Assembly (NCBI GenBank): GCA_039715075.1
Contig: JBDLIC010000003.1
Location: 7 to 64,006, forward strand
Direction: 5' to 3'
DNA from: Nitrospirota bacterium
GTDB lineage: Bacteria; Nitrospirota; Thermodesulfovibrionia; UBA6902
Length of the DNA: 64,000 nt
The translations under genes were made by a program, and so were the position numbers. Of the stretch, positions 725 through 64,000 are shown in pieces. The notes beneath the pieces were generated by a model that saw only the letters and a program-made list of their open reading frames with translations, was not told where the DNA came from and did no database searches. The number at the start of each line of letters is the position of its first letter. The stretch's first letter is position 1.

Positions 725-819
725 AGTCCTTTACTATTCTAATCTTATTACTTTACGGCTTTTTAGACAAAAAATATAACTGCTAATATAATGAATTAAT
801 TTTTATATAATTTATTCCT

Positions 820-22958: not shown

Positions 22959-23071
22959 ATTTTAAATAACCTGAATCGTGATTTTCTCAATGCGGAATGC
23001 GCTATACATGATAACATATCGTGCGAAGGTAATGCAGGGGGGGAATCGTGAATTACCCTGACCCCACTCAC

Positions 23072-23307
23072 AAAGGATAAAAAGAGATTGACGATTGACG
23101 AAGGGAAAGAGGAAAGGAAAATGACGATTGATGATCAAGGAATGACTAATGACGTTTTTTTACTTCGTAATTCGTAAATCGTCAATCGCTATTCGTCAAT
23201 TTCCGTTTATCTTTCCCGCTTCCGCACTTTTCTTTTTTTCTTGACACGTATCTATATTTTTCATACCATTGTTTTTGAAAAGGAGTGGGATTTCTTAGGC
23301 CCATTTT
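23072..23307. repeat. Island repeat unit copy 1: ~145-nt attgacg-word palindrome plus conserved ~90-nt module
   Basis: aaaggataaaaag..attgacgattgacgaa...ttcgtcaatttccgtttatcttt, then cccgcttccgcacttttctttttttcttgacac...gggatttcttaggcccatttt. Confidence 0.85.
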
Positions 23308-23349
23308 CATTGATTGATAATTGTTAATTGATTAAAAGAGGGAACGACT

Positions 23350-23793
23350 ATGGAGCAGAACCGAGCCACGCAAATCATGGAGCAAGGCTGTACTTGATCG
23401 GAGGCTGTACTCCAGGCCGTGTGCCAGGAATTTGAGATAGAGATAGAGAACGATGTCCTTTCCCGAGTTGCCTTCGGCTTCGCAGGGGGGCTCGGCAACA
23501 CGGGGGCCGTCTGCGGTGCCGTCATTGGTGCTGTCATGGCTATCGGCCTTAAGCGCGGGCGGGCTGATACAATGGAAGAAAGTCTCCGCGAATTGGCGCT
23601 GCCGCGGGAGTTTCGCCGCCGCTTCGAGGCAGAGATGGGGACCATCAGCTGCCGTGAATTGACGGGGCTGGATTTGACCACAGAGGAGGGGCTTCAGCAG
23701 CTCATGAGGTCTGACATACCCCAGACGGTCTGCTTTCCAGCGGTTAGCACAGCTTACCGGCTGGTGGTGGAACTGCTGAAGGAAACCCCTTAG
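23350..23793 (+). CDS. C_GCAxxG_C_C-family redox protein with in-frame TGA (candidate Sec) at 23395..23397
   Basis: ATG 23350 (GAGGG RBS) is in frame with track ORF 23419..23793; the TGA aligns with the first family Cys (G-x-x-C-[AS]-[EQ]-[AS]-V-L); GAVCGAV, SCREL and TVCF are present. Confidence 0.65.
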
Positions 23794-24016
23794 AAAAGGA
23801 TAAAAAGCGATTGACGAATAGCGATTGACGATTTACGAAGTAAAAAAAACGGCATTAGTCATTTTTCTTTCCTCTTTCCCTTCGTCATTCGTCATTCGCT
23901 ATTCGTCAATCGTCAATTTCCTTTTATCTTTCCCGCTTCCACACTTTTATTTTTTTCTTGACACATGCCTATATTTATAATATCCACTATTTTAGTGGGG
24001 GGGTCTTAGGCCCATT
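23794..24016. repeat. Island repeat unit copy 2 (palindrome core inverted relative to copy 1)
   Basis: 23836..23880 is the reverse complement of 23103..23167 apart from a 21-nt indel and point differences; same downstream module cccgcttccacactttt..cttgacac..gtcttaggcccatt. Confidence 0.85.
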
Positions 24017-24046
24017 AATACGTTATCTTTGAAGAAATATAATTAT

Positions 24047-24081
24047 TTGACTTCATATATAATGTGGGTTACTATAGCTAT
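24047..24081 (+). promoter_or_regulatory. Putative sigma70 promoter with overlapping palindromic operator of the RHH-mazF module
   Basis: TTGACT-N17-TACTAT; 10-bp perfect palindrome tatagctata (24072..24081) overlaps the -10. Confidence 0.45.
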
Positions 24082-24108
24082 ATATATCCACATAACTTGG
24101 AGGTGTTT

Positions 24109-24339
24109 ATGAGAACCATTCAGATGACGTTAGATGATGACCTTGTGGAAGCTGTAGACAGGCTGGCAAAGAAATTAAAAACAACCCGTTCTGCTTTTAC
24201 ACGTAAGGCCTTGCGAGAAGCCATTAAACAAGTAAATATCAGATCGCTCGAAAATAGACATAAAAGAGGTTATGAACGTTATCCCGCAGGTAAAACAGAA
24301 TTCAGAGTTTGGGAATCAGAACAAGAATGGGGCGATTAA
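24109..24339 (+). CDS. Ribbon-helix-helix (CopG/MazE-like) antitoxin
   Basis: GGAGG RBS; MRTIQMTLDDDLVEAVDRLAKKLKTTRSAFTRKALREAI is RHH-like; TAATG overlap with the toxin gene. Confidence 0.8.
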   Translation: MRTIQMTLDDDLVEAVDRLAKKLKTTRSAFTRKALREAIKQVNIRSLENRHKRGYERYPAGKTEFRVWESEQEWGD

Positions 24340-24650
24340 TGAAAAGGGGAGAAGTCAGGTGGTATAAATTCAGGAATCCTGACAAAAAACGTCCAATAGT
24401 AATACTGACAAGAGATGCAATATTAGAATATTTAGGCGAGGTCACTATAGCACCAATAACATCAACTATCAGAAACATTCCAAGCGAAGTATTGCTTTCC
24501 ACTCAGGATGGAATGAAGAATGATTGTGCCATTAACTGCGATCACATTCAAACAGTTTCAAAATCAAGAATTGGTTCATTAATTATTACCTTATCTAATG
24601 ATAAACTTATAGATCTCCGCAGCGCTATATGCTTTACATTAAGTATTTAA
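24339..24650 (+). CDS. mazF: MazF/PemK-family endoribonuclease toxin
   Basis: KRGEVRWYKF...KRPIVILT...VTIAPITST pattern; start overlaps the antitoxin stop. Confidence 0.8.
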   Translation: MKRGEVRWYKFRNPDKKRPIVILTRDAILEYLGEVTIAPITSTIRNIPSEVLLSTQDGMKNDCAINCDHIQTVSKSRIGSLIITLSNDKLIDLRSAICFTLSI

Positions 24651-24746
24651 ATAATAAAAGGAGATAACCATTAGATACTCATGAAAGCTCAGTGGTGGCA
24701 GCACCTGCTACCATTTGATATAATTATTTAGTAACTTTTTAAATAA

Positions 24747-25202
24747 ATGGGAATAAAACAACTTATAGGGCTCATAAGCATACTTCTTATTTTTCTGGGC
24801 TGTGCAACTAAATGGCATCATCTGGAAGGGCATGGTAAGGAAGTACAAAAACTTGATGTATCAAGTTGCAAAGCAGAGGCATATTCATACGCAACAGATA
24901 AATTGACCGACCCTTCACATCCAAGAGGGCCCAAAGTGTGGAAATTTGCCTTCAGACTAAATTATGACGTTCATTATCACGAATGCATGAATAACAAAGG
25001 CTGGGAGTTGGCATATTATGACGGTAATGTTAAGGATAAGCATAAGTCTGATAGCGATAATTGCACAGTTCAGGGATGGAGATACGCGAGAGATAAATTA
25101 TTCGAACCTTCGCATCCACAAGGACCCAGAGGCTGGAGATATGGCTATAAACATAATTTAAAATCTCATTATCAGGAATGTATGCAGAGCAAAGGCTGGT
25201 AA
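24747..25202 (+). CDS. Lipoprotein with internal two-fold duplication
   Basis: Lipobox IFLGC; two ~50-aa repeats each with C...DKLxxPSHPxGPxxW...HYxECMxxKGW. Confidence 0.6.
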   Translation: MGIKQLIGLISILLIFLGCATKWHHLEGHGKEVQKLDVSSCKAEAYSYATDKLTDPSHPRGPKVWKFAFRLNYDVHYHECMNNKGWELAYYDGNVKDKHKSDSDNCTVQGWRYARDKLFEPSHPQGPRGWRYGYKHNLKSHYQECMQSKGW

Positions 25203-25231
25203 AGCTGAGTAAGCTTTAAAGAATCAATTCA

Positions 25232-25285
25232 CATTAGTCATTCCTTGATCGTCAATCGTCAATTTCGTTTATCGTACCCGCTTCC
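25232..25285. repeat. Island repeat unit, partial copy
   Basis: cattagtcattccttgatcgtcaatcgtcaatttcgtttatcgtacccgcttcc; same orientation as copy 2. Confidence 0.7.
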
Positions 25286-25348
25286 TGTTTTTCGAATGTC
25301 CGAGCTTCCGGGTTGAATATAGCATGAGTACCGTGCTATCATGATAAT

Positions 25349-25642
25349 ATGATCCAGTCGTTCCGGAATAAAGGGACAGAAGATATATTTAATGGCATAA
25401 ATTCAAAGGATGTGCGAAAGATATGTCCTCAATCAATATGGAAGGTTGCTACAAGAAAGCTGGATCAACTGGATTCTGTAATAGAGCTTAATGAACTACG
25501 CATTCCCCCAAACAATAAGCTGGAGTCATTAGCAAGAGATAGAAAAGGACAATACAGCATAAGGATAAATGATCAGTATCGTATTTGTTTTATATGGAGT
25601 GATTCTGGTCCGGATAAAGTAGAAATTACTGATTATCATTGA
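25349..25642 (+). CDS. higB: HigB-family (RelE/ParE superfamily) toxin
   Basis: MIQSFRNKGTEDIF...YSIRINDQYRICF...ITDYH matches the plasmid-maintenance killer protein pattern; toxin-first gene order. Confidence 0.85.
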   Translation: MIQSFRNKGTEDIFNGINSKDVRKICPQSIWKVATRKLDQLDSVIELNELRIPPNNKLESLARDRKGQYSIRINDQYRICFIWSDSGPDKVEITDYH

Positions 25643-25664
25643 GATAATTATTAGGAGGTTAACA

Positions 25665-25982
25665 ATGGTGAGGATACCAACACATAGAGAACCGACGCAC
25701 CCGGGAGAAATGCTGCTTGAGGAGTTTCTTAATCCTATGGGCATTACTCAGAGAGAACTGGCTGAAAAGATTCATGTGCCATATCAGCGAGTAAATGAAA
25801 TCATTAATAAAAGGCGAGGCATTACACCGAGTACAGCCTTAAGGCTTGCAAAATTATTCAGAGTTTCTGAAGATTTCTGGATGAACCTTCAGTTGCGCTG
25901 GGATTTATATAAAGCAAGACTAAATGAATCAAAGGAATTGAAGGAGATTAGACCCTTAAAGCTCAAGCAGACAGCGGTTTAA
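25665..25982 (+). CDS. higA: HigA-family XRE-HTH antitoxin
   Basis: HPGEMLLEEFLNPMGITQRELAEKIHVPYQRVNEIINKRRGITPSTALRLAKLF. Confidence 0.85.
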   Translation: MVRIPTHREPTHPGEMLLEEFLNPMGITQRELAEKIHVPYQRVNEIINKRRGITPSTALRLAKLFRVSEDFWMNLQLRWDLYKARLNESKELKEIRPLKLKQTAV

Positions 25983-26033
25983 TAAAATGCCCAAGAAGGC
26001 AGTGCATTGGAACGAGTGATAAAGGGTAATTCG

Positions 26034-26150
26034 TGAATTACCCCTACACTTGAACTTACCCGCTTCCTCACTTTTCTTTTTTTCTTGACACATGCCTGTA
26101 TTTGAAATATCCTTATTTTAAGTAAAGGGGGGATTTCTTAGGCCCATTTT
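26034..26150. repeat. 20-bp palindrome plus island module copy 3
   Basis: gggtaattcgtgaattaccc, then cccgcttcctcacttttctttttttcttgacacatgcct...ggggggatttcttaggcccatttt. Confidence 0.85.
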
Positions 26151-26210
26151 CATTTATTCGTAATTCTGACCCCAAACGTTTAAAACGTTTTTTAAAAAGG
26201 AGGCGATATC

Positions 26211-26399
26211 ATGGAAGATATTCAAAAGCACACTGACTGTGATAATTTTCAAAAGCCTGAATGTCCGCATTATGACAATGGCATAATGAAGGATCTTTAT
26301 CTTATTAAGGAAGATGCCGCAAATTATTCAGGTAACTTACCTGATCGAGTTGACAATGAATTATGTAAAGAATGCTATGAATTCTCTCCTATAACTTGA
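26211..26399 (+). CDS. Small Cys4 (zinc-ribbon-like) hypothetical protein
   Basis: Strong AGGAGG RBS; Cys pairs C10/C18 and C52/C55. Confidence 0.5.
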   Translation: MEDIQKHTDCDNFQKPECPHYDNGIMKDLYLIKEDAANYSGNLPDRVDNELCKECYEFSPIT

Positions 26400-26588
26400 T
26401 GATCTTTTTAACCTGAATACAGAACGGTGAGCAATGTATGGAGTCAAATCTTTATTAGATATTTAGCAAATTCCGACATAACCTACTTGCATGCGGTGCT
26501 CCAATCCCCAAGCCGCCAGCTGATTTGGATTAAAAGGGCTGACCCCTTATCCGTTAATGGTAGAGATTAAATATAAGTGGAGGGTGAT

Positions 26589-26921
26589 ATGCAGCGTTTC
26601 AAAAAATTTATAGATCAAAGTCTTAATTCAGAAAATATAATAAACTCAGATCAATTATCTGCATTCGGGATAACATGTACAACTCTGCCGGACCCGCCGG
26701 AAGAATTTGACGAGTTTGAATTTAGAACCGGTTTTTCAGAGCAAATGGATGTTGTGATCGGGGTGGCAATAGAAATGGGGAAAGTTAAAAGGATCTTGTT
26801 GGGTTTGTCAGAAAAGAGTGACCCTGATAGTTTTATGGCTTTGTCTGAATTACAATTAGAAGAATTTTTAACGCAGAGGGGCGATCAGCTGATCGGGTTT
26901 TTTAAATTCATTACGCAATAA
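26589..26921 (+). CDS. Hypothetical protein
   Basis: GGAGGG RBS before ATG 26589; no motif recognised. Confidence 0.45.
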   Translation: MQRFKKFIDQSLNSENIINSDQLSAFGITCTTLPDPPEEFDEFEFRTGFSEQMDVVIGVAIEMGKVKRILLGLSEKSDPDSFMALSELQLEEFLTQRGDQLIGFFKFITQ

Positions 26922-26925
26922 AAAT

Positions 26926-27156
26926 ATGTCGAATGCGAAAAAGTTTATTTATAGCAATAAATTTATAGGGATTCTTCTCATCTTAACTTCTTTTATGCCT
27001 TTCATTAACGGCTTCAAAGGTGAGAGAATTGCTATCTCGGCTAGATATGGGGGCGCATTCGAAATGGAACCATGGCAAAGTATAATTATTGGATTTTGTT
27101 TTTTACTTGGCGGATTATATTTTGTAATTGATTTGAATAAAAGAAATGAAAAATGA
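26926..27156 (+). CDS. Small two-TM membrane protein
   Basis: Two hydrophobic helices; directly follows the previous ORF. Confidence 0.45.
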   Translation: MSNAKKFIYSNKFIGILLILTSFMPFINGFKGERIAISARYGGAFEMEPWQSIIIGFCFLLGGLYFVIDLNKRNEK

Positions 27157-27620
27157 GTGGCTGCGAAGGATCATATAAATCCGGTGTTAGTGAAGTTGTA
27201 CGACGTTCTGTAAGTGAAATAATAAATGAAAATATAAACATAGAGTGGACTCAAACAGGCTATAGCCGAACGGTGGACTACCCCTAGCTATAGTGCCACT
27301 CTAAGTTAGCGTTTTCCAGTAAATTCATTTTTTAAAAGGTGCACTTCTCGATAATTTATTAGGTTATGGGAGCTGGGCGCTGTTAATAGAAAATTCTTGT
27401 AGAATAGGCGGGTTTTCGTTAAAATGTAACATCTTGATTAATTGGGATTTTACAATTCTTCCCAAATTGGCAAATAGGGGAGTTTTAAACCTAATCTAAT
27501 CAGTGGATTTATTTTTGGGGTGGATGTTTGTTAATTGCATAGAGTTGAACCTACTAATTCTAAAAAAATCCGCAAAAAGCGTTATCATTAAAATAGTTTG
27601 ATAATAAATTAAGGAAATAC

Positions 27621-28640
27621 ATGGCTAATAAAGCAACAAACAAAAAACAGAAGAGCCTGGAAGAGACCCTTTGGGATTCTGCTAACAAGCTGCGTGGAAG
27701 CGTTGAACCATCAGAATACAAGCATGTGGTTCTGAGTCTTATCTTTCTGAAGTTTGCCAGTGAAAAATTTGAGCACCGGCGACAGGAACTGACTGATGAG
27801 GGGAAAGAGAAGTATCTCGATATGGTGGAATTTTACACTATGAAGAACGTTTTCTATCTTCCGGAGGAATCCCGCTGGGGCTATATCAAGAAGCACGCGA
27901 AGCAGGATGATATTGCCATCAAGATTGATACGGCTCTTCATACGGCTGAAAAGACGAACAAAGCTCTGGAAGGTGCATTACCGGACAACTATTTTTCCCG
28001 CTTGAACCTTGATGTCAGTAAACTGGCCGCATTGATAGATACAGATAAGAGTAAAGAAATCGATATTTTTAATGATGACTATCTTGCAAAGATAGAAAAG
28101 ATCAAACTGCCCAATACGAAAATTAAGCTCTTGCAGTATTTGCTGTCTAAAGCTATTGATGAATTTAAGAAGATCAATAAAATCAAAGGAATTGACTTTA
28201 CAAAAAAGTTTAATGCTTTAGTTGAGCAATACAATGACAGGAAAGAGCAGGATGTTTTGGTCAGTAATGTGCTTGAAGATTTCACAGGAGAAATTATTGA
28301 TCTATTTCATGCCATGAAGAAAGAGAAGGAATCTTTTGGTGATATGGGGATCGATCTTGAAGAGAAGGCTTTTTATGACATCCTCAAAGCACTGACTATT
28401 AAGTATGATTTTGAATACCCCGAGGACAAACTACTGAAATTGGCAAAGGGAGTAAAAAAGGTTGTTGACGATAAAGCGAAATATACAGACTGGAGCCATC
28501 GCGATGACATTAAAGCTGAACTAAAGGCGGATCTGATCATCCTTTTGGCAGAGAATGGCTACCCTCCCGTAGACCGGGATGAAGTGTATAAAGAAATCTT
28601 TGAGCAGGCTGAGAATTTTAAGAAGTATCAGGGAAAATAA
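27621..28640 (+). pseudogene. In-frame chimera of HsdM N-terminal domain and HsdR C-terminal domain (type I R-M remnant)
   Basis: N-terminal ~140 aa look like HsdM_N (LEETLWDSANKLRGSVEPSEYKHVVLSLIFLKF); the rest resembles the HsdR C-terminal helical domain (LVEQYNDRKEQ...EEKAFYDIL); no methylase, S or helicase/nuclease sequence. Confidence 0.6.
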
Positions 28641-28718
28641 TGGGTGGTATCATTACCTGTTCTCCTCAATATTTGATGTGTTTCCCATTTTTAGGTAAAA
28701 TTTTCTTAGAGATCCTAT

Positions 28719-28931
28719 ATGAAAAGACAATTACTATATTTAGCGCTTATTTGTGTTGTCCCGGCAATACTGTATTTCCTATCACTGGAGAAGGTCATTC
28801 CAATGCCTGCTGATGATGCTCATGCAAACCTTACGGAAATCGCCCAGTGTTTCGAGTGTCACGGCGAAGGCATGGAATATGCCCGCAAAAAAGAGCATCC
28901 ACCAAAAGACCAGTGCTTTAAGTGTCATTAA
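28719..28931 (+). CDS. Small membrane-anchored diheme c-type cytochrome
   Basis: N-terminal TM helix; two CxxCH motifs (CFECH, CFKCH). Confidence 0.65.
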   Translation: MKRQLLYLALICVVPAILYFLSLEKVIPMPADDAHANLTEIAQCFECHGEGMEYARKKEHPPKDQCFKCH

Positions 28932-28990
28932 AAATGCGGTAGTCAAAAATTGTGTTTACAATATTTGTAAAGAGAACTATTGACTAATTA

Positions 28991-29033
28991 ATTTTCATTA
29001 AATATGGGGCTCTGCCCCATATTTAATGAAAAT
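28991..29033. repeat. Perfect 20-bp-stem palindrome
   Basis: attttcattaaatatggggc-tct-gccccatatttaatgaaaat. Confidence 0.95.
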
Positions 29034-29119
29034 CTATCAATTACTTAAATATATAGACAGCACCTCTAAACAGGTGCTATAATAAAACCAATTAACAATA
29101 CCAGTAAGGAGGTTCGAAT

Positions 29120-29425
29120 ATGGGAACTAAATTTTCCGAAGATATAATCCCGCTAGGTGACCTAAAGGTGAATCCCGGTAAAGTTGTTTCTCATGTGAAT
29201 GAGACGCACAGGCCGGTACTGCTGACCAGCAGAGGACGGGGGGTGGCTGTAGTACAATCACTTAGCGACTATGAGGATGAGACTGAGAAGCGTGTTTTTA
29301 TGCAGGATATAGTAGAGGGATTAATGGACCTTGAAGAAGGCAGGGAACTTTCACTGAAGGATGTAAAGAAGCGTCTGCGTATTGTCCGCATCTGGAGAAG
29401 CGAAAGACATCTGAAAAAGCCATGA
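29120..29425 (+). CDS. Phd/YefM-family antitoxin (orphan)
   Basis: GGAGG RBS; LGDLKVNPGKVVSHVNETHRPVLLTSRGRGVAVVQSLSDYE; no intact toxin gene downstream. Confidence 0.7.
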   Translation: MGTKFSEDIIPLGDLKVNPGKVVSHVNETHRPVLLTSRGRGVAVVQSLSDYEDETEKRVFMQDIVEGLMDLEEGRELSLKDVKKRLRIVRIWRSERHLKKP

Positions 29426-29489
29426 CTCCTGCTTCTGTAAGCTTCCCCCTTAAGTCGATAGTTCTAAATTAGATTTCCCGGGAGATTGT

Positions 29490-29783
29490 CTATTGATCCT
29501 TTTTTGTACGATTTGGAATCACAAAAAGTATTATCAGTCCAATGAAACTTAATAAACCCAATAAAGCAAAAGAATCGTGATAGCCTTTTCCTGTTGCCAT
29601 GTGATAACAACCGAAAAAGAAAATAACAACCCCCACAATATATGTCGCCGTAGAAATGTATTCGTAATTTCCCCCCAGCTGAAAAAGAATATCAAAAAAG
29701 TACCCCATAAAAGCTACAAGAAAACCAATGCCTGCAAGCTGAGTCCCTTGTTTATATTTCTTATTCACAATCTCCACTTTCAA
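29490..29783 (-). CDS. Small membrane protein (3 TM)
   Basis: Hydrophobic helices; AT-rich; downstream of the transglutaminase-like gene. Confidence 0.5.
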   Translation of the reverse strand: MKVEIVNKKYKQGTQLAGIGFLVAFMGYFFDILFQLGGNYEYISTATYIVGVVIFFFGCYHMATGKGYHDSFALLGLLSFIGLIILFVIPNRTKKDQ

Positions 29784-29849
29784 ACGTCAGCTTTCATATT
29801 TAATCTTAATCTCTCCAAACTTGTTTTTATATTCGATGAAGGTGCTGCT

Positions 29850-30224
29850 CTATTCTCTACTTTTTCTTACAGGTATAATACCCTTTTTTAGCAACTTACA
29901 AAGTATGGGAACTTCCAAACCACTTATTAAAAAGGAATCCCCAAAGGTAGCCATATGCCAATAAAATAAATTCTCATTTGTCTTGGTCATTTTTAATAAC
30001 AAAGTATCTAGAACGATGTTTGGGTCATACTGAATAGCTGTAAATCCTTCGTGATAAGCAAGGTAACAATTTATTGCGACACTGGTTAAAACAAAAATCA
30101 TCCCGATAATTGTAATTATAAATGTCCAGAGTATGGATTTTTTGCAAATAGTTGTACGACAATCAAGGATACAAATAGTCCAGATGAAGAGATATCCCCA
30201 AAAAACAATTTGATATTTATTCAT
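29850..30224 (-). CDS. Small membrane protein (about 4 TM)
   Basis: Hydrophobic helices; starts 9 nt after the stop of the 1055-aa gene. Confidence 0.5.
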   Translation of the reverse strand: MNKYQIVFWGYLFIWTICILDCRTTICKKSILWTFIITIIGMIFVLTSVAINCYLAYHEGFTAIQYDPNIVLDTLLLKMTKTNENLFYWHMATFGDSFLISGLEVPILCKLLKKGIIPVRKSRE

Positions 30225-43548: not shown

Positions 43549-46500
43549 CTATTTAACGATTTTTACCAGAATGTCTCCGAAACCCGGCATTCCGGTCATG
43601 GGGGTAAGATTGTCAGGATCAAAGAACTCGTTAATATTGGTGGTGTATTCACTTACATTATTAATAAAACCGAGCCCCGATGCATTTTGTCCTCCCGGGC
43701 CAAAGGCGGTTTTTATGACACCCGGCATTATTTCTTCAGTAAGGTAAACCTTTCCCTTCATGCTTTTCCCGGAGGGGTTTTCAAGAGTAATGACATCTCC
43801 TTTTTTTATGCCCAGTTTCCTGCCGTCACTTTTGCTGATTGCCAGCACAGGGATGGATACACTTCCAGCCTTGAAACGGGGTTTCATATTCCCGGGAATC
43901 CCGTATTTTTCCCGGAACCCGCTATTTTCCGGTAATGCATATTCGAACCCGTTATTCATCGGCTTCATGCATTCCGTTTCTGTTTCAGCAAGATAAGGAC
44001 AGACTGCTGTCATTGTCATGGCATGGTGTACCCTGCCTGATATCAGCTGGAAAGGGTATTCATCTGTTATGTTTTTGAATTTCGGGTTTTTCGGGTTCCA
44101 CAAGCAGTCGCTCCAGTAGAAAGTCACAGGCAGGCCGGTCCCGAACTTTTTGTTAATATTTTCAATATAGCTGAATCTGAATTCAAACTTTTTTGAACCG
44201 GTTGCGGGATATAGCCCGGATGGATCGTTGTTTGATTTTTTATACCGGTAATAACCTGCGGGCCATACTGCTACTCCATTATTTTTCCTGAGCCAGTCGA
44301 CTGTAAGCAGTGTGCCCTTTTTAATGACCTTCTTTCCCCACACGGCCGCGGGATTATCCGGTGTACCTACTATTAAGCATCCTTCAGGAAGGTCGGGATA
44401 GGGTAGAGGCCGGCCCAAATTGAAAAATCCCGGCGCCTCGCTTAATATCTCATTTATGAAATCTTCTTCGTCTTTATACCTTCCGGCAAAATCTTCAATC
44501 CTGATATCATGATCTCCATTTTTTATAAGGGCGTCCGAGAGCGTTATCATAAATTCATAAGGGGTCTTTGATTCATGGAGAGGCTTGATGACCTGGTCCC
44601 TTACAGCTATTTCCGGACTCATTGTGTAGACATCGCTCACGCCCATTCTCTCAAGGAAACCGGCATCGGGCAGGATAATGTCAGCATATTTGCCGGAGAC
44701 TGTGATGTGGGTGTCTGTGAACACCATCAATTCAAGAAGGTATTCACCATTTTCATCCCTGGCCGTCAGTGCGTCAACCCAGTCCGGGGTGCTGCCGGCT
44801 GTTATAACAGGGTTGCCTGCCCTGGTTATAAAAGCTTTGGCAGGATAGCTTAGGCCTTTAAAGGGGCCGTGTTTCAGTTTGGTCCCTTCCCTGATCTTTT
44901 TGGGAAGGTCTGCCAGCACCCCTTTCCATGCTGCGGGATATTCACCATACATGTCCTTGTTAAGCTCTGACAGTTTTCCGGAAACTTCATTGCCGTCAAC
45001 ATTTCTGCTGACAGTGTTTTCGAGGAAATGTTTTCCAGTGGTCCTGTTCCCCTTCTTTGCTTTTTGAGAATCTATGAAGACCAGGCCGCCCGGAACATCA
45101 ACGTTTCCTGTGATCAGGCAGAGTGCTGTCATGAGTATTGACGTGACATCACCATTCGTATGGTGCGCAGTGCCATGCATCCCTATTTCAATGGCAGCCG
45201 GTTTTGTAATGCCGAAGAGGTGGGACACCATTTTTATCTTTTCCGCTTGTATGCCTGTTTTTTCTTCCGCCCATTCCGGAGTGAAAAAGTGCATTTCGTT
45301 GGCAGGGTCAATATTTTTTGAATGGTCGAGAAATGCTGTCTTAAATTCTTCCCAGCCGACAGTATACTTTTTAATGAAATTATGGTTTAAATATTTCCGT
45401 TCAGGATCTGAAGAAGAGTCCTCACTGATAATACAGTAAAGCATTGCCGCAAGCAGTGAGGCATCTGCTCCGGGTATGATCGGGAGCCACAGGTCCGCAT
45501 GGGCCGCTGAATTGGTATAAGCAGGGTCGACCACTATATACTTGCAGCCGTTCTCTTCCCTGGCAGCAGGGATTCCGCGGGACATATAATTGAAACGGGT
45601 AGCAACGAGGGGGTTTGTCCCTATGTTGAGAAGCAGTTTTATGTCATGACTTTCTTTGAGATGCAGTTCACCTTCTTCATTTCTTATAAGAAACGGTCTC
45701 TGTATGTCAGGAAGCGGCCTCTCGTCACCTGTCATTATTCCCTGTCCCCACTTACGGTTGGGGTCGCATATGCTTCCGTGGTTATAGGTGTTTGGAGTGC
45801 CGAACGCATGGAACAGCCTGTAGTATGCTTCCCTGTCAGTAACATCGCCGCAGTCCATGAATACAGACTCAGCTCCGTATTTCTTTTTTATTTCTATCAG
45901 CTTTTTTGCAATGTAATCCGCTGCTTCATCCCAGGTGATTTCTTCCCACTTATCTTCCCCCCTGCTGCCGGACCTTTTTAAAGGAGTCTTTATCCTGTGG
46001 GGAGAGTATGTGAGCTGCAGGCCTGATGCGCCCTTTGCGCAGAAGGCCCCGTTATTAATTAATGAATGTGGGTTGCCGTAGATTTTTTTTGCCATGCCGT
46101 TTTCAACTACAACCGATATGCCGCATTCGGACGGACACATGGCATCTGACGTATAGACTGTTTTTGATTCTTCCGGCCTGACTGAAGATGGAGCAGACTT
46201 AATGCGTCTGGTGGAAGGGCCTTTGGTTACTTCATGGTTTTTTAATGATGTGTGATCAATATCTTTTTTTGATATATAAAAAACAGACGGACTTGTTTCC
46301 AGTTCAGGATTGAGGACTTTCAGCTGTTGTTTATTCATTTCAGTACTGATGCTGCTTTTTGGATCATTAATATCACCAAACAGGAGCGCCTTTCCCATGC
46401 AGCTCTGCACGCAGACAGGGCTTTCCCCGTTTTGCACCCTGCTGCAGCAAAAGTCGCACTTTTCAGCTTGTCCAGTAGCATGATTAATTTCAATCGCATC

Positions 46501-46818
46501 ATAAGGACATTTATCCTGGCACATCCCGCAGCCGGAGCAATTTTCATTGTTAATAATAACAATGCCGTCCTGGTTTTTATAAAGGGCGTTTTCTTCACAT
46601 GCATTAATGCAGGGGGCATTGTCGCAGTGATTGCAGAGACGGGGAAGAAATGTTTTTTTTGTTTCGGGAAACGGGCCTGAAATATGTGTGTGAACTTTGC
46701 ATCTAAAGAGCCCGAAAGGAATTTCATATTCAGTTTTACATGTGACCTGGCAGGCATAACACCCGATGCACCTGTCAAGGTTGATCAGCATGCCGTACCT
46801 TTTGTTACGTTTTGCCAT
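43549..46818 (-). CDS. Fused four-cluster ferredoxin (beta-like) and molybdopterin oxidoreductase (alpha-like), Psr/Phs/DMSO-reductase superfamily
   Basis: N-terminal ~190 aa with CIGCYACQVTC, CNHCDNAPC, CSGCGMCQDKCP, CDFC; then MopB-like domain (CPSECGISV...FCAKG); no twin-arginine signal. Confidence 0.8.
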   Translation of the reverse strand: MAKRNKRYGMLINLDRCIGCYACQVTCKTEYEIPFGLFRCKVHTHISGPFPETKKTFLPRLCNHCDNAPCINACEENALYKNQDGIVIINNENCSGCGMCQDKCPYDAIEINHATGQAEKCDFCCSRVQNGESPVCVQSCMGKALLFGDINDPKSSISTEMNKQQLKVLNPELETSPSVFYISKKDIDHTSLKNHEVTKGPSTRRIKSAPSSVRPEESKTVYTSDAMCPSECGISVVVENGMAKKIYGNPHSLINNGAFCAKGASGLQLTYSPHRIKTPLKRSGSRGEDKWEEITWDEAADYIAKKLIEIKKKYGAESVFMDCGDVTDREAYYRLFHAFGTPNTYNHGSICDPNRKWGQGIMTGDERPLPDIQRPFLIRNEEGELHLKESHDIKLLLNIGTNPLVATRFNYMSRGIPAAREENGCKYIVVDPAYTNSAAHADLWLPIIPGADASLLAAMLYCIISEDSSSDPERKYLNHNFIKKYTVGWEEFKTAFLDHSKNIDPANEMHFFTPEWAEEKTGIQAEKIKMVSHLFGITKPAAIEIGMHGTAHHTNGDVTSILMTALCLITGNVDVPGGLVFIDSQKAKKGNRTTGKHFLENTVSRNVDGNEVSGKLSELNKDMYGEYPAAWKGVLADLPKKIREGTKLKHGPFKGLSYPAKAFITRAGNPVITAGSTPDWVDALTARDENGEYLLELMVFTDTHITVSGKYADIILPDAGFLERMGVSDVYTMSPEIAVRDQVIKPLHESKTPYEFMITLSDALIKNGDHDIRIEDFAGRYKDEEDFINEILSEAPGFFNLGRPLPYPDLPEGCLIVGTPDNPAAVWGKKVIKKGTLLTVDWLRKNNGVAVWPAGYYRYKKSNNDPSGLYPATGSKKFEFRFSYIENINKKFGTGLPVTFYWSDCLWNPKNPKFKNITDEYPFQLISGRVHHAMTMTAVCPYLAETETECMKPMNNGFEYALPENSGFREKYGIPGNMKPRFKAGSVSIPVLAISKSDGRKLGIKKGDVITLENPSGKSMKGKVYLTEEIMPGVIKTAFGPGGQNASGLGFINNVSEYTTNINEFFDPDNLTPMTGMPGFGDILVKIVK

Positions 46819-58093: not shown

Positions 58094-58933
58094 ATGGCCA
58101 TATCTAATTACTTCAAACCTGTTAAATCAATGTCTGCGGACAAAGTCAGAGAATATTTGCGGGATGAAAATCCTGATGAGTACAACCTTATTGATGTGCG
58201 CCAGCCTTTTGAGTATGAACAGGATCACATACCGGGCGCGCATCTGATGCCCCTGAAAGACCTTTCTGCACAAGTTAAAAATCTTGACAGGGAAAAACCG
58301 ACCATTGCCTATTGAGGCATCGGGGTACGCAGCCGTGCTGCTGCATCCATACTCTCTGATGCGGGATTCAGTAATGTTATAAATATGTCCGGAGGCATTA
58401 ATGCCTGGAAAGGGGCGAGGGCTGAAGGGGTCCCGGAGTCCGGCATGGCGTATTTTTCAGGCAGTGAAAGTCCGGAAGAGCTTGCTGCCCTTGCATGGCT
58501 GCTTGAAGATGGGTCAAGAAAATTCTATTCAGAAGTCTCAACGCTGACAAATGATGGAGATGCAGTTTCATTATTTAAAGACCTTGTTACTGCTGAGGAA
58601 CATCACAAGGAATCCATTTTAAAAGTATACCAGGAATTGACCGGCAGTAAGGCTGTGCCGGAAGACATGGGTGAGCTTATATCTTCAGAGACACCGGGAG
58701 ACATGATGGAGGGCGGCATAAGTGTAACGGAGGCACTGGAATGGGCACAGGAAAAGAGTTTAAAGGAAATTCTCGAGTTTACGATCTCTCTTGAAGCCAA
58801 TGCTTATGACCTCTATATAAAGATGGGGAGAAAATTTGTGGACAGTAATGCCGGGAAGATATTTGATCTGCTTTCAGAAGAAGAGCGGATGCATCTTGAG
58901 CGTATGGCCGGTTTACTGGAAAAAGAAATCTGA
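58094..58933 (+). CDS. Rhodanese / ferritin-like (rubrerythrin-like helical) fusion with in-frame TGA (candidate Sec) at 58313..58315
   Basis: Track ORFs 58094..58315 and 58385..58933 share one frame; the read-through gives KPTIAY-U-GIGVRSRAAASIL, so the TGA occupies the rhodanese CX4R active-site Cys position; C-terminal half has AEEHH and EEERMHLE motifs. Confidence 0.65.
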
Positions 58934-58957
58934 CTTCATTATGTGAAGCACATGACC

Positions 58958-58990
58958 GTCATTCCCGCAGTCCTTTGAGCGGGAATCCCT
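58958..58990. repeat. REP-like hairpin gtcattcccgc...gcgggaatccc
   Basis: attcccgc-agtcctttga-gcgggaat between convergent genes. Confidence 0.7.
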
Positions 58991-59031
58991 AGCAATGCCT
59001 GTCTTATGTATTTAGGTTTGAACTGCTGTAT

Positions 59032-59535
59032 TCAATAGGCAATCTTTATCCTGCCTATTTCATCTTTAGTAATATCAGACCATGCTTTCATTGTCCAGTA
59101 ACCTACCCACTTTTTGAATATACCTAGATTCTTCTGCCGTTCTTCTTCTGTTTTCCCGAGGCGTTCGTACATCTTGCCGGGTTTTCCGTCCTCTGTATTC
59201 CTGCCATCGTCAAGGGCCTTTGCCAGCGATCCGGCATCCGGCCATATGACAAAAGAAACCAGATGCGAGAAGCTGTCCATTTTAGGGCCGATTTTCTTTG
59301 CTGTATATTTCTCTACATCTTTTACGAATCCCATATGCTCAGGTGATTTTTTGCCGTGGCACTTTGCGCATTTTTTATCGAATATTGGCTTGATGCTGTT
59401 TGTATAAGTGACGCTGCTCTTTGCGGAGGCATGTTTTTCCTTGCCATGTGCAAATGAGTCTTTCAGAACAAACGGGGAAAGTAAAAGAGTTAGTGTGAAC
59501 ACCGGTACAGTAATTAAGTGGAAAAATGTTTTCAT
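59032..59535 (-). CDS. Secreted monoheme c-type cytochrome-like protein
   Basis: Signal peptide; IKPIFDKKCAKCHG (CxxCH); GGAGG RBS before ATG 59535. Confidence 0.65.
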   Translation of the reverse strand: MKTFFHLITVPVFTLTLLLSPFVLKDSFAHGKEKHASAKSSVTYTNSIKPIFDKKCAKCHGKKSPEHMGFVKDVEKYTAKKIGPKMDSFSHLVSFVIWPDAGSLAKALDDGRNTEDGKPGKMYERLGKTEEERQKNLGIFKKWVGYWTMKAWSDITKDEIGRIKIAY

Positions 59536-59549
59536 TTTATTCTCCCTCC

Positions 59550-60149
59550 TCATGAACTCATTAAGGCTTGAATAATTGATTTCATGTCATCAGTATTCCA
59601 TTCTCCATAACCGAGAGAAACTCCAATGATGTCTCCGTTTTTATCTATCAGGAACTTCATGGGGTGAGACCTTACACCGTAGCTGGCGCTCACCTGTTCA
59701 TCCTGATCCAGTAAAAAAGTGAAAGAAAGGTTTCTTTCCTCAATAAATTTTAGGACTGTTTCCTTTTCCTCTCCTACATTTATCGCCAGTATTGAAAACG
59801 GTTTACCTTTAAAATGCCGGCCCAGTTTTTCAAGAGAAGGCAACTCCTTCTTGCACCAGCCTCACCATGTTGCCCAGAAACTCAGCATAATCACATTGCC
59901 GCGCTGCTGCCTGAGATTGATTTGTTCTTCAGCGATAGACATCAAAGTGAAATCCGGGGGCAGTAGCGGTTTCTCGGGTTTCTGGATATTCATTGCCGTC
60001 ATTAGCGAGGAGAGATCAGTATCTGACAAGTTCTGATCAGCCCCGGCGGCTTCAGGAAGAGTCCCTGAAAATTCTCTGAACCCTCCGTATATACTGCCCA
60101 GAAGAATGAGGATTATTGTTATGGTGAATACCTTATTTGATATATGCAT
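59550..60149 (-). CDS. TlpA/ResA-like thioredoxin-fold protein with in-frame TGA (candidate Sec, UGWC motif) at 59862..59864
   Basis: Track ORFs 59862..60149 and 59550..59843 share one frame; the read-through gives VIMLSFWATW-U-GWCKKELPSLEKL, so the TGA occupies the first Cys of WCxxC; N-terminal membrane anchor. Confidence 0.7.
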
Positions 60150-60168: not shown

Positions 60169-62961
60169 CTAATGCACATGTCTCCCGCTCATGGGCAGAC
60201 CGAGCATATAAATACTGGAAAGTACAACAACCAGTGCGTACAGAGACATAACCAGGGTCATCTTATACATATGATAAAGAGGCTTTTGATAGCGCCTGAG
60301 CAGGCGGTATAACACATATAATGTGAAACCGAATCCCGTTGCAAGGATACTCATCTGGATAAAGTAAATGGTCTCAAGTCCCAGCAGAGGGGAAGGGTTC
60401 CAGTTTGCAGAGAGTGACGCTCCGATACCAATGTTCTGCAGGAACCGGATAGTAGCAGGCAGCGCTATAGGGCTTTCAATTAAAAGGTGCTGAATGTTGT
60501 GTGCAAAGTGCAGTCCTACTCCCATGGGTATAAAGAGAAAAGCGAAGTCCTTTACAAGGTCCTGCGTTTTGTAGTCCCTCTTTCCAAGCCATAATTTAAG
60601 CAGATAACATATTAAATAAAAGATTGCGACAGGTATCAGAAGCACGGCCGTAAATACGATTGTATAAACCAGTGAAGGTGCTGTTATACCGGTAACTGAA
60701 CTGAAACCTCCTTTCAGCGGTTCCCATGATGAGGTCATGGCAAGAGTCTCTACAATGACCACTCCCAATAATAACAATGCTGCGATTGCCTCTGCCTTTG
60801 ATTTGCGCAGGCTGGCATATATGTCTTTGCCAAAGGACCTGAGGCGCAGACTCAGATTTTGCGAAGGGCAGGCCGGTTGGCATTTCATACAGAAATTACA
60901 GTACACGTTGTTGTCCATATCTTCCGGCGATTCGAGCATAGGACAGGCCTCTGTACATGTTTTCTTTTTGTGTGCGTCACAGCGGCCTTTATTGCATGAA
61001 CGCAGCTCAAAGGGTGATACCATGGAATAGATCCCGATAACTGCCCCGATAGGGCAGATATGACGGCAGAAGGAGCGCCGTTCATAAATAATACTAAATG
61101 CGACAGCTGCAGCCAGAATAATTAATATCACTACTGATGTCACAAACGGCTTGCTGCCGAATGCAAGGATCGTAAATGCCCAGGTCAGTACAAGGAAACC
61201 TATGGTCTGCAGTCCCATGTTTTGGAGCCAGCCGGGAAGTTTTTTGTTCAAAGAAACAAATTTCTGGGCAAAGTCGGCAATGGCCGCAAAAGGGCACATC
61301 ATGCACCAGAAACGGCCTGCAAGTATAAAAGTGAATATGACCAGACTCCACCAGATAGTCCAGGTAAAGACTGTCGCAATATTACGCTGACCATCCTGGA
61401 CATCAAAGAAGCCGAGATAAGTGACAGCCAGAAATATAAGCAGCGTGGGGATGACAAAAATATATCTGAAATATTTTGAGGTAACAGTGCGTTTAATCCA
61501 GCCTATTTTTAGAAGATCGAAGCCTTCTTTTTCACGATACTCAGGTTTGTTTTGTGACGAAGATCTGAAACGGCTGAGTATAAATCCCATCCCGATCATA
61601 CCTGAAAAAACTAACAGCCAGCTGACATAACCGGTCATCGAAGCCCGGCCGGCAAAGTCTTTCAGAGATATGCCTGCATAGTGGAAATGGGTCTCCTTTT
61701 TGGAAGGGTCAAATCCTGAATCAAAGCCGGTAAAAGCGGACATTATGGGATTCCCGAAAATGTCCCTGTCTGCACCCTCTCCTATACGGAATGTAGTCTC
61801 ATTGCTCGCCCATACATCCGCATGCTCCTGATTGCTTTTGGAATGATCGTGATTGGCATGTGCCTTATCAAGCGTGAAGATCCCGTAATGTTTCATGGTA
61901 TTTCCGACGACAAGGAGCATATTATAGGCTTTCCCGATTTCAAAGGATACGTCCTGCTTGTCAAAGGTCTTCAAGGGAAAAGCGAATTCATATGTATAGA
62001 AATCATTCTGATGATTGCCTTTTGCGGTGACGTGGTCGGTATCGTCCTTTTTAAGAAAAAAGGTCTTGTTCGGGCGCTGCGTGAAATATCTGTCGCTCAC
62101 TTCACCGTCTGATTTCATGACTTTAGCATCCTTGTATGCACCGAGCATCCCGAGATTAGCGTCATTTTTGAACATCAGGCCTACCCAGTAAGGAGTGTCC
62201 GTCTTTACTGCGAAATATATGTTTTCATTATCGATCTGCGTCCAGACCTCAACATAGTAATATGGTTCTTTGTGTCCTTCAGAAGGTTTATGAGGTTCAT
62301 AGCTCCCCAGATAAAAATACCTGTGCCCTGTGTCCTTCCATTCCCCTGCAGAAATCTTTCCGTCTATATTTATTGTATTTCCTGTATTCCGGGCAATGAA
62401 ATTCGTATTGTTTGAGGCATATACTACCGGACTGTCCGGCGGAGTCCCGTCAAAATCCGAAGGATTATATTTATAAACCATCTTCCCCGGTGCAGCGCCG
62501 CATCCGTTGGCAATATGAATATTGCCTGTCATGGCGTCAACATCAAGCACAAGCCGTTCTACCTTGAAGTTAACCGGACCAAGGTGGTAGCCGCCATCAT
62601 ATCCTTTTAAAGGTTCCGACTCAAACTGATATACGACCTTCCTGTGCACTTTCTCAAGCTTCCTGAATGCCAGGGGGAATGGGGGGGGCTGCAGATTTTC
62701 GGTGAGGAACCGCTCTGCTATCTCCCTGGCATGATCAGGAGTAATATTTATTAATGATTCATCATAGAGGAGGTTTCCCTCTTCATCATAATTATTCCCA
62801 CGATTGTTTTGCTCTTCTGTCTCAGTATTTTCAGAAAGGATTACATCTTTGCCGTTGCAGGCATATAACAAGTCTGCCTGAAACATGAATAATGCCATGA
62901 TTGTCAGAAGAACTGCAGCAATATAGATTTTGTGCTTTTTAGGCATGTCTTTTTTTAACAT
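60169..62961 (-). CDS. Membrane polyferredoxin of the NapH/NosR type with periplasmic PepSY-like and DOMON/CBM9-like domains
   Basis: GRFWCMMCPF and RSFCRHICPIG membrane Cys motifs; CNFCMKCQPACP ferredoxin motif; IDGKISAGEWKDTG module. Confidence 0.65.
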   Translation of the reverse strand: MLKKDMPKKHKIYIAAVLLTIMALFMFQADLLYACNGKDVILSENTETEEQNNRGNNYDEEGNLLYDESLINITPDHAREIAERFLTENLQPPPFPLAFRKLEKVHRKVVYQFESEPLKGYDGGYHLGPVNFKVERLVLDVDAMTGNIHIANGCGAAPGKMVYKYNPSDFDGTPPDSPVVYASNNTNFIARNTGNTINIDGKISAGEWKDTGHRYFYLGSYEPHKPSEGHKEPYYYVEVWTQIDNENIYFAVKTDTPYWVGLMFKNDANLGMLGAYKDAKVMKSDGEVSDRYFTQRPNKTFFLKKDDTDHVTAKGNHQNDFYTYEFAFPLKTFDKQDVSFEIGKAYNMLLVVGNTMKHYGIFTLDKAHANHDHSKSNQEHADVWASNETTFRIGEGADRDIFGNPIMSAFTGFDSGFDPSKKETHFHYAGISLKDFAGRASMTGYVSWLLVFSGMIGMGFILSRFRSSSQNKPEYREKEGFDLLKIGWIKRTVTSKYFRYIFVIPTLLIFLAVTYLGFFDVQDGQRNIATVFTWTIWWSLVIFTFILAGRFWCMMCPFAAIADFAQKFVSLNKKLPGWLQNMGLQTIGFLVLTWAFTILAFGSKPFVTSVVILIILAAAVAFSIIYERRSFCRHICPIGAVIGIYSMVSPFELRSCNKGRCDAHKKKTCTEACPMLESPEDMDNNVYCNFCMKCQPACPSQNLSLRLRSFGKDIYASLRKSKAEAIAALLLLGVVIVETLAMTSSWEPLKGGFSSVTGITAPSLVYTIVFTAVLLIPVAIFYLICYLLKLWLGKRDYKTQDLVKDFAFLFIPMGVGLHFAHNIQHLLIESPIALPATIRFLQNIGIGASLSANWNPSPLLGLETIYFIQMSILATGFGFTLYVLYRLLRRYQKPLYHMYKMTLVMSLYALVVVLSSIYMLGLPMSGRHVH

Positions 62962-63094: not shown

Positions 63095-63334
63095 ATGATG
63101 CATTGGGGCAATTTCAGTGGAATGGGATTTGGATTCGGATGGATATTTATGGTGCTTTTCTGGGCATTTGTAATACTGGGAGTCGCTTATCTGCTCAAGC
63201 AGTTGCTGAGCAGCGGCAGTTCCGGGGAAAGCAGAGAGACTGCACTCGATATTCTAAAGAAAAAGTATGCAGCGGGTGAGATTACAAAGGATGAGTACGG
63301 TGAGAAGAAAACAGCAATTTCAGAAAAAACTTAA
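63095..63334 (+). CDS. SHOCT-domain small membrane protein
   Basis: AAGGAGG RBS; one TM helix; LDILKKKYAAGEITKDEYGEKK. Confidence 0.7.
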   Translation: MMHWGNFSGMGFGFGWIFMVLFWAFVILGVAYLLKQLLSSGSSGESRETALDILKKKYAAGEITKDEYGEKKTAISEKT

Positions 63335-63450
63335 GCAGGACCACAAGGCTCAATACTTGACAAGCACATGGTTATGTATTAAAAGGAAGGTATATCACAA
63401 CCAGCAGAGTTAAGGAAGTCTTTAAGAAACTTAAAAAGGAGGTAATAAAA

Positions 63451-64000
63451 ATGAAGCGCTTACTATTAATAACAGTCTTGATTTTAGGTTTAACAGCGTC
63501 TTACAGCTTTGCCCAGATGGGAGAGGGGCATATGGGAGACCAGGGTCATATGTCGGGACAGGGGATGATGGGACAGGGCTATGCGGGCAGCCAGAGTCAG
63601 CAGCCGCCGCAGGGAATGCCCTATGGCCAGATGCCTTATGGCGGCGGTTATCCATGCCAGCAGATGATGGGACCGGGCATGATGGGATATGGCGGATACG
63701 GTATGATGGGCCAGGGCCACATGGGCGGATATGGAATGATGGGACCGGGTCACATGCGCGGCATGATGGGACCGGGCATGATGGGACATGGCGGATACGG
63801 GATGATGGGTCAAGGTCATATGGGTGGATATGGAATGATGGGGCCGGGTCATATGGGCGGATACGGAATGATGGGCCAGGGCCATATGGGCGGCATGATG
63901 GGTTACGGCAAAGGATACGGGAAACAGGGATACGATGATGAATCCTATAAAAAATATCAGGAAGACTATCAGAAGTTTATGGAAGAAACGTCGGATCTGA
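63451..64000 (+). CDS. Secreted Gly/Met/His-rich repeat protein, Spy/CpxP/ZraP-like tail (partial, runs off window)
   Basis: AAGGAGG RBS, signal peptide MKRLLLITVLILGLTASYSFA, repeats GYGMMGQGHMGGYGMMGPGHM, then YKKYQEDYQKFMEETSDL; absent from the track because no stop lies in the window. Confidence 0.7.
   Translation, partial: MKRLLLITVLILGLTASYSFAQMGEGHMGDQGHMSGQGMMGQGYAGSQSQQPPQGMPYGQMPYGGGYPCQQMMGPGMMGYGGYGMMGQGHMGGYGMMGPGHMRGMMGPGMMGHGGYGMMGQGHMGGYGMMGPGHMGGYGMMGQGHMGGMMGYGKGYGKQGYDDESYKKYQEDYQKFMEETSDL

Follow-up and report, generated by a model that had tools for sequence, protein, structure and literature searches.

This work concerns a gene in a stretch of 64,000 nucleotides of DNA from a Nitrospirota bacterium (GenBank assembly GCA_039715075.1, contig JBDLIC010000003.1, positions 7 to 64,006 of the forward strand), which is referred to below as the window. 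The minus-strand frame 60149..59550 is, in all likelihood, a single selenoprotein gene. Its internal UGA at codon 96 (UGA96) would be read as selenocysteine (Sec), a 17-nt hairpin in the mRNA would serve as the bacterial selenocysteine insertion sequence (bSECIS), and the product would be an anchored, periplasm-facing thiol-disulfide reductase of the TlpA/ResA/CcmG type. At the level of sequence comparison, four parts of this interpretation are supported directly: the conservation of the TGA, the translation of the frame downstream of it, the conservation and covariation of the hairpin, and the membership of the protein in the fold family.

The gene and its internal UGA codon

The frame consists of 199 codons and is interrupted by a single internal TGA at 59864..59862. 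The minus-strand open reading frames (ORFs) 59862..60149 and 59550..59843 are in the same frame and are separated solely by this TGA, exactly as described in an earlier note on this DNA that was made from the letters alone (the original prediction). Read-through gives ...NVIMLSFWATW*GWCKKELPSLEKLGRHF... or, with a longer upstream part, ...GNVIMLSFWATW*GWCKKELPSLEKLGRHF..., and the frame ends at a second TGA, 59552..59550. The features assigned to the gene and its mRNA are the following:

59550..60149, minus strand: coding sequence of the putative TlpA/ResA-like selenoprotein, 199 codons including Sec96, terminal TGA 59552..59550; single frame with Pfam and PDB matches
59862..59864, minus strand: in-frame UGA, proposed Sec96, first (nucleophilic) position of U-G-W-C; aligned with the first Cys of CxxC, TGA in 11/11 sequences
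59853..59855, minus strand: TGC codon for Cys99, predicted resolving Cys of U-x-x-C; read from the sequence, invariant in the homologue alignment
60081..60131, minus strand: predicted N-terminal hydrophobic signal-anchor, about residues 7-23, from Kyte-Doolittle hydropathy
59835..59851, minus strand: bSECIS-like upper stem-loop AGAAGG-AGUUG-CCUUCU, 6 bp, loop of 5 nt at 59845..59841, 16 nt from UGA to loop
59816..59860, minus strand: possible extended SECIS (tentative), lower helix 59860..59852 paired with 59824..59816, from RNAalifold and minimum free energy (MFE) folds

TGA is the stop codon of 8 of the 36 large ORFs in the window, the terminal stop of the TlpA-like gene being one of the eight. 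The genetic code is therefore standard and not reassigned. The window contains only two read-through candidates with a single TGA at a catalytic-Cys position, namely the TlpA-like gene and a rhodanese gene described below.

Fold family, active site and membrane anchor

When Cys is put in place of the internal stop, the read-through protein matches the Pfam families AhpC-TSA (1.6e-24), Redoxin (1.5e-22) and Thioredoxin_8. Over the whole catalytic domain it matches the PDB structures 3kcm (2.5e-24), B. subtilis ResA (about 1e-22) and TlpA 1jfu (7e-15). In TlpA/ResA-like homologues, the residue aligned with the internal stop is the first Cys of CxxC. Cys at this position is at least 90% conserved in an alignment of 20 sequences, where the exceptions are the X of the window itself and the database fragment P0069, which ends there; it is invariant in an alignment of 64 sequences, and CxxC was found at 87 sites in related genome loci. 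The family signature FWATW-x-x-x-C-K-K-E-L-P is present, as is the conserved Pro before a late beta strand (P163). The homologue alignments and the PDB matches thus bear out the proposal, made in the original prediction, that the TGA stands in place of the N-terminal, nucleophilic Cys of a TlpA/ResA-like CxxC.

The membrane anchor, which had likewise been proposed, was found as one N-terminal hydrophobic segment after basic residues, with no second such segment, in 10 of 10 full-length relatives. The best 19-residue Kyte-Doolittle window (1.75-2.97) lies at the N-terminus of all of them. The protein thus has the same membrane-anchored architecture as ResA, TlpA and CcmG, probably with the catalytic domain in the periplasm.

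The motif of the Sec-containing clade is W-U-x-W-C-(K/R)-(K/R)-E-(L/F)-P-S-L-E. The first x varies among the relatives (T, N, I or S). The second x is a constant Trp within the clade and is Pro in 106 of 117 Cys homologues. The idea that the 'GW' of U-G-W-C is unique to the Sec form had to be rejected, as Cys forms from Nocardia have C-G-W-C. These Nocardia thioredoxin-like genes (L054-L081) encode FWATW-C-G-W-C, with the same rare Gly-Trp dipeptide in a Cys form, and several of them have GC-rich hairpins downstream at spacings other than that of the window.

A peroxiredoxin (AhpC/TSA proper) was ruled out, the active site aligning with the CxxC of ResA and not with TxxC/TxxU; the AhpC-TSA match arises because the fold is shared with peroxiredoxins. 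The Sec-peroxiredoxin motif is given as TxxU in two papers (PMC1088965; PMC13188914).

Conservation of the TGA and selection on the downstream frame

The comparison set comprised 11 sequences, the window and 10 relatives from separate assemblies (NCBI metagenome-assembled genomes (MAGs), ENA, JGI, Logan and GenBank metagenomes). The TGA and the frame downstream of it are kept in all 10 relatives, whose proteins are 43-92% identical to that of the window. Nine full-length relatives share the C-terminus, and the partial contig L001 remains in frame up to its end. Several of the relatives were found via N-terminal peptides or N-terminal fragments, so that their recovery was independent of the TGA codon. 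TGC or TGT at position 96 was found in no relative within the clade. The original prediction had named close relatives with TGC and without hairpin conservation as the finding that would speak against it; the opposite was found, all 10 relatives keeping both the TGA and the hairpin.

In a large protein database the nearest sequences were Cys forms, at most 41-45% identical, and the 126-residue fragment P0069, which ends at ...SFWATW. The contig of P0069, L001, reads TGG-TGA-GGA-TGG-TGC at this point and then continues in frame with clear homology. A metagenome scan from N-terminal peptides gave L082, L083 and L084 (84, 84 and 64% identity, respectively), all with the TGA and an intact frame to the shared C-terminus. 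L086 (NCBI GCA_030598485.1), which was reached via a neighbouring gene, has the same gene order and the same TGA as the window. A 95-residue N-terminal fragment of the window protein was searched against 1.84 billion representative proteins, and about 100 of the best 150 clusters were gene calls of about 75-113 residues that end exactly at ...FW(A/T/S)TW. The DNA behind five such clusters (L090 to L094) has, in 5/5 cases, the TGA and about 103 further in-frame codons; the proteins are 43-48% identical to the window protein. A profile scan of genome contigs returned Cys forms only, the best of them 38-43% identical, and the Sec clade was reached only via metagenome contigs and shortened gene calls.

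The 5' end of L001 (ENA contig NODE_173357) is a chimera with an Illumina adapter (AATGATACGGCGACCACCGAGATCTACAC..., about 98..155). The start of P0069, MIRRPPRSTLFPYTTLFRS..., is this adapter translated by the gene caller, and the true gene start is MKKLSLS.

The ratio of nonsynonymous to synonymous substitution rates (dN/dS) was computed for the six closest sequences. After the TGA, where synonymous divergence goes up to saturation, it is 0.08-0.18 in 8 of the 9 computable pairs and 0.32 for the pair L084-L001; before the TGA it is 0.15-0.49. Judged by these ratios, purifying selection after the TGA is at least as strong as before it. The conserved TGA, the selected downstream frame and the standard code together exclude, for practical purposes, a pseudogene, an assembly error and a reassignment of the code.

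The RNA hairpin

The mRNA after UGA96 reads GGCUGGUGCA-AGAAGG-AGUUG-CCUUCU, and the 17-nt hairpin begins 11 nt past the UGA. The bSECIS consensus, as given in a 2026 review (PMC13188914), allows 3-9 nt in the apical loop, 4-16 bp in the upper stem and 16-37 nt from UGA to loop; one of the first two loop bases is a G, as a rule with G or U after it, and the MFE is -7.5 kcal/mol or lower. All 11 sequences agree with the geometric rules: the loop is AGUUG with G-U at positions 2-3, the stem has 6 bp and the spacing is 16 nt.

The stem is paired in 66 of 66 cells of the 11-sequence alignment. At the closing pair seven sequences have A-U, two have G-U and two have G-C, and at the third pair ten have A-U and one has G-C; compensatory changes thus occur at two pairs. 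Only 5 of 500 shuffles matched the pairing and covariation of the hairpin, and when the 3' partner was slid by 1-3 columns the pairing dropped to 53-82% of cells. Among six sequences, 61 of 84 degenerate codons for invariant residues vary synonymously. In the six-codon segment for K-K-E-L-P-S, which also encodes the hairpin, a single codon varies, that of the last loop base; of 79 such segments this one alone has at most one synonymously variable codon.

A hairpin of this quality would seldom follow a TGA by chance: in the window, 44-68 of the 2698 TGA trinucleotides (1.6-2.5%) pass a strict perfect-stem model at -6 to -5 kcal/mol. Of 88 sites with the Cys form, only nine, all in high-GC Nocardia genes, carry a bSECIS-like hairpin of any kind, and in no case is the spacing 16 nt. 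The hairpin was for this reason rejected as a by-product of coding for C-K-K-E-x-P.

For most sequences the predicted folds include a lower helix that begins just past the UGA, in two different registers. It has one compensatory pair among six sequences, and the shuffle test is significant for the window and L001 only. On these folds, the lower helix can be taken only tentatively as part of the SECIS. An 8-bp stem with a bulge was discarded because the A-U pair that it needs between alignment columns 13 and 33 is broken in 7 of 11 sequences. Of the hairpin with GU in the loop that had originally been drawn at 59853..59831, the inner 6-bp stem is accordingly conserved, and the outer bulged CAA...UUG extension is unsupported.

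Probable selenocysteine decoding in the lineage and a second TGA gene

A second gene with an in-frame TGA lies 1.2 kb from the TlpA-like gene:

58094..58933, plus strand: second candidate selenoprotein gene, rhodanese-rubrerythrin fusion; TGA 58313..58315 (Y-U-G-I-G-V-R-S), hairpin 58329..58344

The TGA occupies the position of the rhodanese catalytic Cys. Both TGA and frame are kept in L086, L087/L088 and L089 at roughly 58-88% identity. The hairpin GCAGC-CGUGCU-GCUGC, 18 nt past this TGA and with G-U at loop positions 2-3, is kept in L086, L087 and L089. Public gene calls split the gene into a 73-residue piece and a piece of about 182-204 residues. UxxG rhodanese selenoproteins are a listed family in PMC13188914, and by its sequence the rhodanese-rubrerythrin gene fits this family.

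Because of this second conserved TGA gene 1.2 kb away, the Nitrospirota lineage very probably decodes Sec. The GatB protein points to the same lineage in so far as its named relatives, 71-77% identical, are nearly all from Nitrospirota/Thermodesulfovibrionia MAGs. For Nitrospirae, PMC13188914 describes selC as embedded in or overlapping selB.

Counter-evidence and alternative explanations

Several observations weigh against the selenoprotein interpretation. No selA, selB, selD or tRNA-Sec gene was found within the window or the related loci searched; the window has no tRNA genes, and 14 related loci have no tRNA-Sec. The chief structural caveat is the stability of the upper hairpin, which alone has -5.9 kcal/mol in the window, weaker than the -7.5 kcal/mol cut-off of the model, and -5.9 to -8.5 kcal/mol across the relatives. 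The 50 nt past the UGA fold at -9.7 to -18.1 kcal/mol, relying on the lower helix with its mixed support, and the cut-off is reached only by counting this less well-supported pairing. The 16-nt spacing is the lower bound of the bSECIS model. The hairpin overlaps the codons of the family-wide C-K-K-E-L-P motif, and its conservation comes partly from coding. No Rfam family, including SECIS, was found on the whole window at gathering thresholds or on 58250..59950 at E-value thresholds.

Since no Sec machinery was seen in the window or the related loci, it could be argued that UGA96 is read through without the Sec pathway, by near-cognate Trp or Cys insertion or by a lineage-specific suppressor tRNA, to give a full-length protein without selenium; selection backs full-length translation but does not identify the inserted residue. 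This is improbable, given that the codon stands at the catalytic Cys, a typical site of Sec/Cys exchange, that a conserved, covarying hairpin with bSECIS geometry follows it, and that the neighbouring second TGA-at-Cys gene has a GU-loop hairpin of its own. Moreover, TGA is otherwise a normal stop, and Trp as the nucleophile residue would inactivate the CxxC site. Another explanation assumes two polypeptides, a 95-residue anchored N-terminal piece and a re-initiated C-terminal piece, with the AAGGAG of the hairpin acting as a Shine-Dalgarno sequence and not as part of a SECIS. The sequence AGAAGGAG does resemble a ribosome-binding site, a TTG follows at 59843, and the public records show two ORFs from gene callers. 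The TTG, however, abuts AAGGAG with zero spacer, and the cut would fall between strand beta1 and the active-site helix of the thioredoxin fold, with the motif losing its first Cys. The codons between TGA and TTG (G-W-C-K-K-E) are conserved as protein, and a Shine-Dalgarno role leaves unexplained why CCUUCU, the 3' arm, shows conservation at four-fold degenerate sites as well as covariation with the 5' arm. Two polypeptides are thus very improbable.

A further explanation is that a Cys-type TlpA gene has decayed into a pseudogene, has recently acquired a nonsense mutation or was misread in sequencing or assembly. In its favour, one stop codon within a frame that is intact elsewhere is what a nonsense mutation typically looks like, and the relative contig L001 is in part an adapter chimera. 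The likelihood of this is negligible in view of the same TGA in 11 separately assembled sequences, whose synonymous sites have diverged up to saturation and whose downstream frame is under purifying selection; no clade relative has TGC or TGT, and about 100 of the best 150 clusters end at the same residue.

Proposed mechanism

In the selenoprotein interpretation, the ribosome would read UGA96 as selenocysteine, and the hairpin 11 nt downstream would recruit SelB-GTP-Sec-tRNA(Sec), following the paradigm of E. coli fdhF. The minimal SECIS hairpin of fdhF has 17 nt and starts about 11 nt past the UGA. The product would be an N-terminally anchored, periplasm-facing thioredoxin-fold protein whose active site is W-U-G-W-C. 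If it works like its family, Sec96 would attack a substrate disulfide, and the resulting selenenylsulfide with a cysteine of the substrate would be resolved by Cys99, so that the protein would act as a thiol-disulfide reductase; the reductase direction is proposed by analogy with ResA, TlpA and CcmG. The most plausible partners would be the products of the adjacent genes described below: the PccH-type apocytochrome with its CxxCH, or the membrane protein of the DOMON/polyferredoxin type.

Relation to known proteins and SECIS elements

Thioredoxin-fold selenoproteins of the UxxC type were described in 2004-2005 as a 'Prx-like protein' (thioredoxin-like UXXC) and a 'thiol-disulfide isomerase-like protein' (PMC1088965). 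The tables of the 2026 review list them together with a 'Thiol:disulfide interchange protein', a 'Redoxin family protein' and a 'UGC-containing TlpA disulfide reductase' (PMC13188914). As far as these sources describe them, the UxxC Prx-like and TlpA-like selenoproteins share with the window protein the thioredoxin fold, AhpC-TSA and Redoxin matches, Sec in the first position of UxxC and widespread Cys homologues. They also share with it a bSECIS directly downstream within the coding region and routine mis-annotation as shortened ORFs. The clade of the window has Trp at the second x, an N-terminal anchor and conserved linkage to DOMON/Fer4_5 and PccH genes, features that were not found in the parts of these papers that were searched. 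Going by its sequence, the window gene is a further, mis-annotated example of the UxxC TlpA-like/Prx-like selenoproteins, which are already established.

Like ResA of B. subtilis, TlpA of Bradyrhizobium and CcmG/DsbE, the window protein has an N-terminal anchor, the motif FW(A/G)TW-CxxC-(K/R)-x-E-x-P and the Pro at P163. Unlike them, it has Sec for the first Cys. The NCBIfam scores are 107 bits for ResA (cut-off 170), 75 for TlpA (230), 55 for DsbE (123) and 64 for StoA (210). As these scores are below the cut-offs, the protein is not an orthologue of ResA, TlpA, DsbE, StoA or another curated member.

Two NCBIfam families, NF041054 ('ResA-like WAxxUGC motif-containing protein') and NF053656 ('TUGYCR motif thioredoxin fold (seleno)protein'), resemble the window protein in having a TlpA/ResA-like fold and Sec directly after W-A-x-x. 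NF041054, which corresponds to the 'UGC-containing TlpA disulfide reductase' of PMC13188914, differs in its motif, U-G-C against W-A-T-W-U-G-W-C with two-residue spacing; the window protein scores 55.5 bits against a cut-off of 300 and has 199 residues against the 354 positions of the model. For NF053656 the score is 20.6 bits and the cut-off 100.

The candidate SECIS resembles the E. coli fdhF type and the bSECISearch consensus in its in-frame position just after the UGA, its small apical loop with G and then U, and its 6-bp upper stem. It differs from the fdhF type in lacking sequence similarity and the bulged U, in having a weakly supported lower helix and, for the hairpin alone, in being less stable than the -7.5 kcal/mol cut-off of the model.

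Genomic neighbourhood

The TlpA-like gene lies between two genes of the same strand, its operon partners:

60169..62961, minus strand: upstream partner, 930-residue membrane protein; C-terminal part a NapH-like polyferredoxin (Pfam Fer4_5), N-terminal part weakly DOMON/EB_dh-like
59032..59535, minus strand: downstream partner, PccH-type monoheme cytochrome c (Pfam PccH 4.6e-45); likely start ATG 59535 with its own ribosome-binding site GGAGGG upstream, alternative start 59553

It begins 19 nt downstream of the membrane protein gene, and the PccH gene follows 14 nt further downstream. In the 930-residue protein the NapH match is below the curated cut-off, as is the hint of EB_dh (E 0.0011), and no PDB match to the protein was found.

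Homologues of the Fer4_5 membrane protein, 67-85% identical, are located directly upstream of the TGA gene in L084, L090, L092 and L094. In L086 the gene in this position is cut by the contig end, and in L001 its last codons are visible. A Fer4_5 homologue is thus directly upstream in 5 of the 9 relatives that can be read there, with a trace in a sixth. The membrane protein (about 925 residues in the module) is better conserved than the selenoprotein (67-85% against 43-60% identity). A PccH gene is found downstream of the TGA gene in L082, L083 and L086. The membrane protein of L092 carries a PccH domain, 57% identical to that of the window, fused at its C-terminal end (residues 919-1082). The TlpA-like gene has no CcdA/DsbD or ccm/res gene as a neighbour.

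L082 and L083 are without the 930-residue Fer4_5 gene, and the sequence before the start of their TlpA-like gene resembles its last codons and the spacer. This comparison suggests that the membrane-protein gene was deleted in the L082/L083 lineage.

Genes for SHOCT or RseC-like proteins recur upstream of the module. A small SHOCT-domain membrane protein is encoded at 63095..63334 (plus strand) in the window and at 317..556 in L092. In L083 the SHOCT gene is adjoined by a gene for a Gly/Met/Gln-rich periplasmic protein with Pfam Metal_resist (PF13801), the two occupying 600..1052 and 1158..1403; the matching region of the window, 63430..64000, consists of repetitive sequence and is cut off by the end of the window.

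The PccH of Geobacter, a low-potential cytochrome of the periplasm, has been implicated in electron uptake (PMC13591261). The Sec-containing TlpA-like protein could be imagined as the thiol/selenol component of an undescribed, conserved three-part periplasmic module, made up of the DOMON-like/NapH-like polyferredoxin, the Sec-TlpA protein and PccH, in which the polyferredoxin, and not CcdA/DsbD, would exchange electrons with the selenoprotein, or in which the selenoprotein would be the dedicated reductase of the apocytochrome of the module; as a whole this proposal is rather unlikely. Two roles can be distinguished. By analogy with ResA and CcmG, the selenoprotein may keep the CxxCH of the module cytochrome reduced for haem attachment. 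Alternatively, it may exchange electrons with the polyferredoxin protein.

Other features of the window

An ORF of 1089 residues at 43549..46818 (minus strand) encodes an N-terminal 4Fe-4S ferredoxin subunit (TtrB/DsrO/NrfC-like) fused to a molybdopterin oxidoreductase catalytic subunit (PhsA/DmsA-like). The two parts are usually separate B and A subunits, and the fusion ORF has no in-frame TGA. The stretches 22958..27621 and 28640..29850 contain few or no ORFs of at least 120 residues. Between them is a 339-residue ORF with an HsdM N-terminal domain and the C-terminal domain of a type I restriction enzyme R subunit. The ORF-poor stretches and this ORF may together be a degraded restriction-modification region.

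Significance

The analysis corrects an annotation: in public assemblies the gene stands as two ORFs, labelled 'hypothetical' or given a wrong name, and the same error appears to affect about 100 of the best 150 protein clusters. Together, the TlpA-like and rhodanese-rubrerythrin genes mark this Nitrospirota lineage as a user of selenocysteine. The use of Sec for Cys in a periplasmic TlpA-type reductase is expected rather than surprising. The conserved linkage to the polyferredoxin membrane protein and the cytochrome may point to an as yet uncharacterised relay of electrons or thiols in the periplasm, and it is the one aspect of the system worth following up.

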